IMG/VR virus record: IMGVR_UViG_2660238209_000009
DNA: 16,968 bases
Origin: a virus
Lineage: Duplodnaviria > Heunggongvirae > Uroviricota > Caudoviricetes
Strand: one strand, 5' to 3'
Part shown: positions 3,001 to 6,000 of the stretch, piece by piece
Layout of the letters: each line of letters opens with the position of its first letter
Numbering within the stretch: the stretch's first letter is position 1
Made by a program: the position numbers

Positions 3001-6000
3001 AAATATCGATCAAATATGGTGCTGCTGTGTGAAATCTGAAAAATCACAGCGGTCATTATGCATCAGTTTTTAACACAGGACGTCAGAACGTGACATGGCA
3101 AAGCTGGACTGGAAAAAGCTGGAGCAGGCATTCCGACGCGAACATGCCGAAACGGGAATAACATTACTGGACTGGTGCCGGAAGAAAAAGATTAATTACA
3201 ACACCGCCAGAACCCGTATAAAAATGGGCAAAATCGATCATGAAATTGATCATAAAACCGATCATGAAATCGATCATGACATCTCAGATGAAGAACCCTG
3301 CAATGACGCGGGTTCCGGCGATGAAAAATGCGCAAAAAACTCTGAAAAAAACTGCGCAAATTCGGCAGAAACGAAACGGATTCGTGGTTCCCGACTTTTA
3401 CCACCTTCAAACGCTTTTTCTCAGCGAAACACCCACGCCGTAAGACACCGTGGATATGCGAAGTATCTTGAGGCAGATAACCTCATGGATGATGCGTCCG
3501 ACATGGTGCTGTTCGATGAACTGGTGTTCACCCGGGCCCGCGCACTTTCAGTAACTAAGGCACTTAAAGGGATGTTCGCCGACCTGGAAGAGGCAACTGA
3601 CGTGGAAACCCGTGTTGCTCTTTACGACAAAATACTCAAAGCTGAACAGGCCCTTGACCGGAATATTGCCCGTATCGAGTCAATTGAACGCTCATTGCTG
3701 ACGCTGGACGTCCTGGCTGAGACAGCACCAAAACTTCGTGCTGACCGGGAAAGAATCAACGCCGCCAGAGATAAACTCAGAGCTGAAACCGATATTCTGA
3801 CCAGCCAGCGTCGGGGCGTTGTTACGCCTGTCAGTGACATCGTGTCATCGCTGCATGAAATGAGTAATTCGGGGAGACTGGATGACATTCCGGAAGAATG
3901 AACCGCGATGTGATGAGCCGTCAGAAATGACCGAGGCTGAACAACGTCTGTTCATCATGACTAAACTGAGCAATCCCTGGTGGCGGCTCAATCATCTCTA
4001 CAAAATACAGAACGAAAAAGGTGAACTGGTCACCTTCAGAATGCGACCGGCGCAGCGCCAGTTGTTCCGGAGCATGCACAATAAAAATATTATCCTGAAA
4101 GCGCGCCAGCTGGGATTTTCCACAGCCATTGATATTTATCTTCTCGACCAGGCATTATTCATTCCGCATCTCAAATGCGGGATCGTCGCTCAGGATAAAC
4201 AGGCTGCCAGTGAAATTTTCCGCACAAAAATTGCTGTACCGTTTGATCATCTCCCTGACTGGCTGAGAGCCTCATTCACCATCGTTGAACGTCGTAGCGG
4301 TGCCAGCGGTGGCTATATCCTGTTTGGTCACGGCTCGAGTATCCAGGTGGCAACCTCATTCCGTTCAGGTACGGTGCAGCGCCTGCATATCTCAGAGCAC
4401 GGCAAAATTTGCGCGAAATATCCGGCTAAGGCGAAAGAACTGCGAACCGGTACGCTTAATGCCGTCTCTGATGAATGCATTATTTTTGATGAGTCCACTG
4501 CTGAAGGCGTGGGTGGTGATTTTTACGAGATGAGTAACCGAGCACAGGAGATCACTGCATCAGGCTTATTGCTGACGGCACAGGATTATAAATTCCATTT
4601 TTACGCCTGGTGGCAGGATCCTAAATACAGCGCCAGAGTGCCGGAAAGCGGGCTGAAGCTGTCACGGGAAAAAATGACGTATTTTTCTGCGGTTGAGAAG
4701 GCAATGAACATCACGCTTACTGATGAACAGAAGCAGTGGTACATCAATAAGGAAACTGAACAGCGTGAGGAAATGAAGCAGGAGTTTCCCTCAACGCCAC
4801 AGGAGGCGTTTCTGACGTCCGGACGACGTGTGTTCAGTGCCGAAAGTACGTTGCAGGCAGAATCATTCTGTTCGCCACCGATGATTGTTTATGACATTGA
4901 ACCTGTTACAGGAGCGAAGACTAAAGCTCAGTCTCTGCGTGAAGGAAATAAAAACGAGTTGCAGCGGACGCTGATGAATTATCTGCTGGTATGGGAACTG
5001 CCGGATCCGGATGAAGAGTATGTTTGTGGGGCAGATACTGCCGAAGGGCTGGAGCACGGAGACCGCTCATCGCTGGATGTTGTCAAACGCAGTAATGGCG
5101 AGCAGGTGGCTCACTGGTTCGGGCATCTCGATGCTGAACTTTTTGCTCATCTCATTTCGCAGGTCTGTCGTATGTATAACAACGCGTTTGTGGGGCCGGA
5201 GCGTAATAATCACGGACATGCAGTTATCCTGAAACTCCGGGAACTCTATCCGACACGTTATATCTACAACGAACAGCATCTTGACCAGGCATATGACGAC
5301 GATACGCCCCGCCTTGGCTGGCTGACAACCCGTCAGAGCAAACCTGTTCTGACCGAAGGAATGAAAACGCTTCTGAATAATGGAATATCAGGGATCCGCT
5401 GGTCAGGCACATTATCGGAAATGAACACCTACGTTTATGACGCGAAAGGCTCCATGAATGCACAGGAAGGCTGCTTTGATGATCAGCTCATGAGCTACAT
5501 GATTGCCCAGGAGATGCGCGCCAGAATGCCGGTGAGGGTAAAACAGAAAACGGATAAACGCAGAACCACACACTGGATGGCACACTGATGAAAAATGAAA
5601 TTAACACCACAGCGATGAAAAACGATCATGGATCCACGCCGCGTTTTTCTCAGCGTCAGTTACTGTCTCTCTGTTCTGATATTGACAGTCAGCCTCTCTG
5701 GCGTGATGCCGCAAACAAGGCCTGTGCGTATTATGATGGCGACCAGCTGGCACCGGAAGTTATCCAGGTACTGAAAGATCGCGGTCAGCCCATGACCATC
5801 CATAACCTCATTGCCCCCACGGTAGATGGTGTACTGGGAATGGAGGCAAAAACAAGAACGGACCTGATAGTGATGTCAGACGATCCGAACGATGAAACAG
5901 AGAAACTGGCAGAGGCCATTAATGCGGAGTTTGCTGATGCGTGCCGTCTTGGCAACATGAATAAGGCCCGCTCCGATGCCTATGCGGAACAAATCAAGGC

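Follow-up and report, generated by a model that had tools for sequence, protein, structure and literature searches.

In the phages P22, Sf6 and SPP1, the sites bound by the small terminase subunit (TerS) lie in or next to its own gene, terS, and constitute the pac site, which in P22 is one continuous sequence of some 22 bp and not a phased repeat. In phage P1, too, the TerS-binding sites within terS (pacA) are the pac site: cleavage is annotated in the P1 record at pacA nucleotides (nt) 276-285, with GATC hexamers at nt 194, 201, 213 and 228 on one side and at nt 324, 336, 347 and 375 on the other, the left cluster reading ATG ATC ATT GAT CAC TCT AAT GAT CAA CAT GCA GGT GAT CAC. Synonymous mutation of the P1 hexamers lowers packaging 9-fold (PMC10028697), and P1 packaging depends on Dam, IHF and HU (summarised in PMC10028697). 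The window analysed here, by which we mean the whole stretch of 16,968 nt from IMG/VR virus record IMGVR_UViG_2660238209_000009 (Caudoviricetes), contains within its terS gene a phased GATC array (array A, 3233-3280) which, in our moderately confident judgement from comparative evidence, is the TerS-binding recognition part of a headful pac site and a GATC-centred variant of a family-wide array. The elements on which this proposal turns are the following:

3095-3901, + strand: terS, small terminase subunit of 268 amino acids (aa); full-length profile match to PHROG 370 'terminase small subunit' (residues 1-268, E 3.8e-125), 100% identity with terS as annotated in Stx2-converting phage 86 and in 933W-type phages
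3095-3229, + strand: predicted N-terminal three-helix DNA-binding domain, aa 1-45 (AlphaFold2 and weak PacA similarity)
3197-3217, + strand: predicted recognition helix, codons 35-41 (YNTARTR), with residues that covary with the downstream motif type
3230-3448, + strand: predicted disordered linker, aa 46-118, carrying arrays A and B (AlphaFold2; peptide not conserved among relatives)
3233-3280, + strand: array A, four 12-bp units ATCGATCATGAA, ATTGATCATAAA, ACCGATCATGAA and ATCGATCATGAC, the proposed TerS-binding sites of pac
3235-3240, 3247-3252, 3259-3264 and 3271-3276, + strand: YGATCA hexamers of array A
3329-3336, + strand: cluster B site 1, TGCGCAAA (the family-wide motif), in the frame TGC GCA AAA (Cys-Ala-Lys)
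3353-3360, + strand: cluster B site 2, TGCGCAAA, 24 bp after cluster B site 1
3007-3012, + strand: isolated CGATCA within ATATCGATCAAATA; terS starts 88 bp downstream

A sequence-only reading of the window had pointed to four phased 12-bp GATC repeats inside the small terminase gene as a candidate methylation-sensitive pac site, and the repeats are indeed there. Their GATC sites, at 3236, 3248, 3260 and 3272, are spaced by exactly 12 bp, and the array is detected by Tandem Repeats Finder with period 12 (3231-3283, 4.4 copies, 82% matches, consensus AAATCGATCATG). GATC is followed by A in all four hexamers, three of which are CGATCA (3235, 3259, 3271) and one TGATCA (3247). The array occupies terS nt 139-186 (codons 47-62), in frame and directly downstream of the part coding for the domain (aa 1-45); its units read ATC GAT CAT GAA / ATT GAT CAT AAA / ACC GAT CAT GAA / ATC GAT CAT GAC and encode the peptide IDHE IDHK TDHE IDHD (I47-D62). 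The local enrichment of GATC is real: the tetranucleotide is under-represented in the window (42 observed, 69.8 expected, at least 42 in all of 200 shuffles), so that the terS cluster stands out all the more, and four GATC within 36 bp are improbable under uniform placement of the 42 sites (P = 0.004). The second most compact group of four extends over 238 bp, and the GATC sites nearest to the array lie at 3008 and 4181, leaving a single GATC cluster; the 231-bp linker-coding stretch contains four YGATCA, the remaining 16.7 kb only seven. The isolated CGATCA at 3007-3012 lies at the end of an open reading frame (ORF, 2794-3039; PHROG 'Rz-like spanin') and resembles the repeat unit; it may be an outlying site of the array. 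RNA structure was considered as another reading of the repeat and dropped as unsupported, its folding being unexceptional (z = -1.2; 25 of 200 shuffles fold as well) and no Rfam match being found there.

Taken by itself, the window cannot separate DNA from peptide as the object of selection. When synonymous codons were resampled with the peptide fixed, the four GATC sites were about as many as expected (mean 3.5, P = 0.48), because every GAT-CAY (Asp-His) yields GATC, while the YGATCA hexamers showed a marginal excess (4 observed, mean 1.8, P = 0.036). The GATC count is equally what one would expect if slippage had generated a low-complexity (I/T)DH(E/K/D) peptide whose role is to lengthen a flexible linker, GATC being a by-product of GAT-CAT, and this explanation is also favoured by the predicted disorder of the segment and by an in-frame copy number that ranges from one to seven. 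That the GATC sites are unremarkable once the peptide is fixed counts against our proposal, and the case for a pac site therefore rests on the relatives, not on the window sequence.

A protein search with TerS yielded 379 homologues, in Enterobacterales and Aeromonas, which share a common plan of a conserved N-terminal domain (about 45 aa), a variable low-complexity stretch and a conserved C-terminal part. We tabulated 27 distant terS loci, from Citrobacter, Serratia, Yersinia, Brenneria, Aeromonas and Xenorhabdus; in 24 of them the 120-350 bp coding for the linker hold three to seven TGCGCA hexamers, compared with zero to five in about 5.5 kb of flanks. One Citrobacter locus (L003) has seven where 0.12 are expected, corresponding to about 1e-10 by Poisson arithmetic. 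The hexamer is read in three frames, nnT GCG CAA (x-Ala-Gln), nTG CGC AAA (Val/Met-Arg-Lys) and TGC GCA AAA (Cys-Ala-Lys), and in the first of these the codon before it ends in T regardless of the amino acid. With the protein held fixed, synonymous resampling gave a mean of 0.4-1.0 TGCGCA where 5-7 are present, with P < 2e-4 for every one of ten loci; for the short linker of Xenorhabdus, with three TGCGCA, P was 0.0016, and a Pectobacterium/Brenneria subgroup with five TTCGCA in place of TGCGCA showed an excess of that hexamer (P up to 2e-4). As far as sequence comparison can tell, the motif arrays in the terS genes of these relatives are a DNA-level signal, and the linker peptide looks like its by-product.

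The GATC sites of the window fall into the same pattern. A Salmonella relative reads AGT GAT CAA AAA / AGT GAT CAT AAA / AAC GAT CAT GAA and so on, and a type found in other E. coli prophages, here called the AQK type, reads AGT GCG CAG AAA / AAT GCG CAA AAA / AGT GCG CAA ATT and so on. When four terS genes were aligned as DNA, the YGATCA hexamers of the window and of the Salmonella gene shared columns with TGCGCA of Citrobacter (nt 141, 153, 165/167 and 177). TGCGCA and TGATCA are both 6-bp palindromes with the central dinucleotide (CG or AT) as their sole difference, and the extended units are alike in their A-rich flanks (AAAnTGCGCAAA, from 315 sites in 70 distinct loci, and AAAnYGATCAnnAA). 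In the GATC-type arrays examined, all units encode Asp by GAT, although they are related by descent. These observations are difficult to reconcile with selection on the peptide alone, which we now consider quite unlikely: the relatives conserve a DNA motif, in three frames and beyond codon choice, and not a peptide; the window's GATC sites occupy the columns of that motif; and the Asp codon does not vary. Support for the pac-site idea comes from the motif arrays that relatives hold at the same position.

AlphaFold2 places three helices in the N-terminal part of TerS (residues 6-20, 24-31 and 35-41; pLDDT 76-88) and a long helical hairpin at residues 130-238, with predicted disorder (pLDDT < 50) at residues 46-109 and 111-118. 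The residues encoded by the array fall in this predicted disorder, so that the repeat encodes the start of a flexible linker. Its peptide varies by lineage, with SAQK NAQK SAQI in other E. coli prophages, SDQK SDHK NDHE in Salmonella, TAQSAQSAQ in Aeromonas and SQIRSSQK in Pectobacterium. The suggestion that the repeat might also act at the protein level, as a His/Asp motif, gains no support: the segment is predicted to be disordered and its sequence is not conserved (AQK, DQK, SQIR and others). A Foldseek search of the TerS model against the PDB returned generic coiled-coil hairpins only (all E >= 0.15), a profile search of PDB sequences found no relative, and the TerS families of P22, Sf6 and SPP1 showed no sequence or Pfam relationship to the window TerS.

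The sequence of the arrays follows the protein. The predicted recognition helix, with the residues beside it, and the motif downstream occur in three pairings, [ST]ARR[YH]IK with TGCGCA, TART[RQ]IK with YGATCA and SAKR[YH]IT with TTCGCA, and helix type predicts motif type with 0 exceptions in 106 classifiable proteins; at the DNA level, the pairing has 0 exceptions in 80 IMG/VR viral loci. Between the window and the 75%-identical AQK type of E. coli, residues 1-18 are identical and the protein is nearly identical from about aa 112 onward, differences being concentrated between the helix-2/helix-3 region (about aa 19) and the end of the variable linker. This pattern makes the TerS domain and array look like a unit that is exchanged as a whole. 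In two further TerS groups, the shared C-terminal part follows an unrelated N-terminal domain, and other repeated motifs occupy the same place, TCCGTCC/GGACGGA in both orientations in one and AAAACGCAC, three times and in two reading frames, in the other, which suggests that a module of binding domain plus sites has been exchanged among TerS genes. These unrelated-domain TerS are found in Salmonella prophages (L121, 1501-2334, and L122, 1501-2298; proteins P0067-P0073 and P0097).

On the simplest reading of this covariation, the repeats that follow the coding part of the N-terminal domain are bound by that domain. In the mechanism that we propose, array A would be a row of sites for the N-terminal helix-turn-helix domains of an oligomeric TerS, written into the DNA that codes for the protein's own disordered linker, and the TGCGCAAA pair located 58 and 82 bp farther on may contribute. 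TerS bound to the array would recruit TerL, the nuclease and motor, a first cut would be made nearby, and headful packaging would start from there. The window lineage and its Salmonella sister lineage would be using a version of the motif with GATC at its centre, where most relatives have TGCGCA. What the analysis shows is the array itself, the DNA-level constraint in relatives, the equivalence in position of GATC and GCGC sites, the covariation of the helix, the weak similarity to PacA and the predicted disorder; TerS binding, a role in packaging, the place of the cut and any dependence on Dam are our inference.

The covariation indicates a pairing of protein and DNA, not its purpose, and the same data would be obtained if TerS bound the array as an operator, to autoregulate the late or terminase genes, with the packaging cut specified elsewhere. 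We regard this as improbable, since in the characterised headful phages with a known pac site the TerS-binding sites (within terS of P1, in or beside terS of P22, Sf6 and SPP1) are that site. Nor was any promoter-like site found on the + strand between positions 2600 and 3600, or any promoter or terminator of note around terS.

A different alternative concerns which of the sites are functional. The layout of the locus is four YGATCA, a 58-bp gap and two TGCGCAAA, and the cluster-B sites of Citrobacter (G228, G256) and of the AQK type of E. coli (G292, G304) have similar offsets. It could be argued that only the TGCGCAAA pair (3329, 3353), or some other sequence, is the functional site and that the GATC array is a neutral derivative which replaced part of an older array. 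The retention of two perfect TGCGCAAA at offsets close to those of Citrobacter cluster B would fit such a history, as would rare relatives with one or two GATC units (P0020, P0016). However, the helix changed together with the array in both GATC lineages (ARR[YH] to ART[RQ]), and the Salmonella GATC type has kept three to five GATC units while losing the downstream TGCGCA sites.

The populations sampled also speak to this alternative. Of the complete E. coli genome records that matched a query spanning the array, 430 in number, 357 did so with at least 99% identity, and four units are present in 36 of 37 IMG/VR arrays, making the four-unit form the dominant one. Three units occur in a set of Stx2a phages, five in L070 and P0025 and seven in P0001/L120; the rare one- and two-unit forms are known from partial proteins only. 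This strong predominance of four units counts against a neutral remnant, and we consider a functional site confined to the older motif, or to another sequence, quite unlikely. In the LC7278xx prophages, a break of homology inside the repeat looked at first like a mosaic joint and was rejected as such, being an IS629-like insertion after the third unit. The end of this element (TGAACCGCCCCGGGTTTCCTGGAGAG...) follows the third unit directly in Stx2a prophages (L037, LC727842.1, locus 3001-3180; H74-H80, H131-H137); the insertion truncates terS at codon 58, and those Stx2a prophages should therefore be packaging-defective.

Against TerS recognition of the array as the start of packaging stand, besides the GATC count, several further observations. 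The number of independent helix and motif switches is small, and with pairings counted by protein and by locus, not on a tree, a handful of evolutionary events may account for the association. A simple rule of one helix and one motif does not accommodate the TGCGCAAA pair that the window retains, and P1 PacA has an ARRY helix yet TGATCA sites. Copy number varies from one to seven among close relatives, and the units derive from tandem duplication, so that the codons they share are partly inherited and not selected. The resemblance to PacA extends over only about 56 residues and is weak (hhalign probability 63%). Finally, the PhageTerm call for a near-identical phage, 'Mu-like', locates no cut.

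The resemblance to P1 on which the sequence-only reading had drawn is real in some respects. As in P1, the array is found within the small-subunit gene, immediately behind the stretch that codes for the N-terminal DNA-binding domain, and consists of clustered, GATC-centred palindromic hexamers encoded as Asp-His or Asp-Gln (GAT CAC and GAT CAA in P1). Both loci have a two-cluster layout (nt 194-228 and 324-375 in P1, terS nt 141-177 and 235-259 in the window), and both kinds of phage encode their own adenine methylase. PacA residues 3-60 align with the TerS domain by BLASTP (E 0.009), NPNTARRYLR being matched to NYNTARTRIK; hhalign of the domain with PacA gave E 6.8e-5 over 56 columns, and the PHROG matches are reciprocal (3e-5 and 1.9e-4).

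In other respects the analogy fails. Of the four hexamers, one is TGATCA and three are CGATCA, compared with TGATCA/G in P1; the spacing is exactly 12 bp, compared with 7, 12 and 15 bp in P1; and P1 has two GATC clusters (4 + 3) flanking the cleavage within about 160 bp, whereas the window has one, its second cluster being TGCGCAAA twice, without GATC. P1 has an IHF site between its clusters, and a consensus search of both strands between 2901 and 3600 found no match to WATCARNNNNTTR. TerS (268 aa, compared with 397 aa in PacA) is unrelated to PacA outside the N-terminal domain, and TerL gave no significant match to P1 PacB. Because hexamers, cluster number, IHF, the rest of TerS and TerL all differ, we do not class the locus as a P1-type pac site, but by analogy it probably works like one.

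The other described sites share different features with the locus. In P22 (gene 3), Sf6 and SPP1 (pacL/pacR), the recognition site is in or beside terS, as is the one proposed here, which would also be bound by the N-terminal helix-turn-helix domain of a ring-forming TerS; further points of likeness are the P22-like portal and the absence of fixed termini reported for a near-identical phage. The phased repeat of the window has no counterpart in the P22 site. Lambda cosB (R1-R3, bound by gpNu1) resembles it in offering several repeated sites to the N-terminal DNA-binding domain of the small subunit near its gene, but the lambda sites are non-coding and act with the cos nick and cohesive ends, whereas those of the window lie inside coding sequence, and the window-type phage shows no sign of cos ends.

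With respect to packaging mode, two genes downstream of terS are informative:

3882-5588, + strand: terL, large terminase subunit (PHROG 2 and others; distant match to T4 gp17, E 1.6e-7)
5588-7732, + strand: P22-like portal protein (Pfam PF16510, E 8e-127)

terS and terL overlap by 20 nt. TerL has no Pfam match at E 0.01 and is recognised via PHROGs and the distant T4 gp17 match only. The window comes from a 933W/Sp5-type Shiga-toxin phage: over bases 2700-6000, it matches Stx2-converting phage 86 with 100% identity, and 933W, VT2-Sakai (Sp5), phi24B and many more short-tailed Stx phages (genus Traversvirus) with 98-100% identity. PhageTerm assigned a phage with 99.9% identity over this region to the 'Mu-like' class, without fixed termini (PMC7946995); the lack of fixed termini, the P22-like portal and the T4 gp17-like TerL fit headful packaging. 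The note 'circularly permutated' on PV189403 and similar records was rejected as pac evidence, since these records are merely re-oriented to the terL start. A gene-function study of Sp5 took ORF58 and ORF59 as the terminase genes, untested there (PMC5155283). We found no defined pac site for 933W/Sp5-type phages in the searchable literature, which excludes subscription papers such as the 933W genome paper. Phages of this type spread Shiga toxin genes, and the 48-bp array offers a concrete pac candidate that can be recoded synonymously, making the start of packaging, its specificity, the potential for transduction and any dependence on Dam testable.

Whether methylation bears on the function of the array is a separate matter. 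Closely spaced hemimethylated GATC sites are targets of SeqA, and the array might accordingly bind SeqA in its hemimethylated state, or serve a Dam-dependent switch of late genes, with no relation to the terminase. The depletion of GATC elsewhere in the window (42 against 70 expected) would agree with this, as would the effect of host Dam on 933W lysogeny (PMC3342100). Such a role for a host factor would leave unexplained both the non-GATC motifs at the same coordinates in relatives and the way in which motif type follows the TerS helix, and we consider it very improbable. For array A as a recognition site of TerS, methylation may matter in another way. Phages of this type carry a gene for an adenine methyltransferase (PMC3342100; PMC7946995), and stable 933W lysogeny needs host Dam (PMC3342100); with both enzymes at hand, the GATC sites would be methylated in vivo, and in a dam+ host their methylation state could gate binding or cleavage, as in P1. 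By analogy, a dependence of packaging on Dam or methylation is conceivable, if on balance doubtful. Control by Dam would not be general to the TerS family, because most of its members use motifs that Dam cannot modify (TGCGCA, TTCGCA).

More speculatively still, the family as a whole might carry its own sites in linker DNA, with helix and array evolving and recombining as a specificity cassette (TGCGCA, TTCGCA, YGATCA, or other motifs with other domains), and the 933W type might have switched to a core that Dam can methylate, so that the start of packaging came under epigenetic gating; as a whole, we hold this scenario to be rather unlikely. If true, epigenetic gating would link phage and host Dam to the production of Stx-transducing particles. 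The family pattern clearly exemplifies a disordered protein segment whose sequence is dictated by a DNA signal, and it offers a means of predicting, from sequence only, the pac sites of prophages with this TerS family and their packaging specificity.

The remaining features of the window lie outside the terminase region:

363-896: lysozyme
1171-1740: Ant-like protein
1897-2361: Rz

Within the lysis cassette, the anti-repressor-like gene at 1171-1740 (P22_AR_N and ORF11CD3 domains) separates the lysozyme gene from Rz. An IS element is apparently present at the window's right edge, judged from an Rfam ALIL pseudoknot (66.7 bits; a frameshift element of the IS3 family) at 16892-16968, which is cut by the window end and accompanied by an ORF at 16611-16937. 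A 673-aa ORF (12284-14305) contains tandem repeats of period 9, 18 and 27 at 12790-13737, which fit the collagen-like Gly-X-Y repeats of the Sp5 ORF67 tail fibre.

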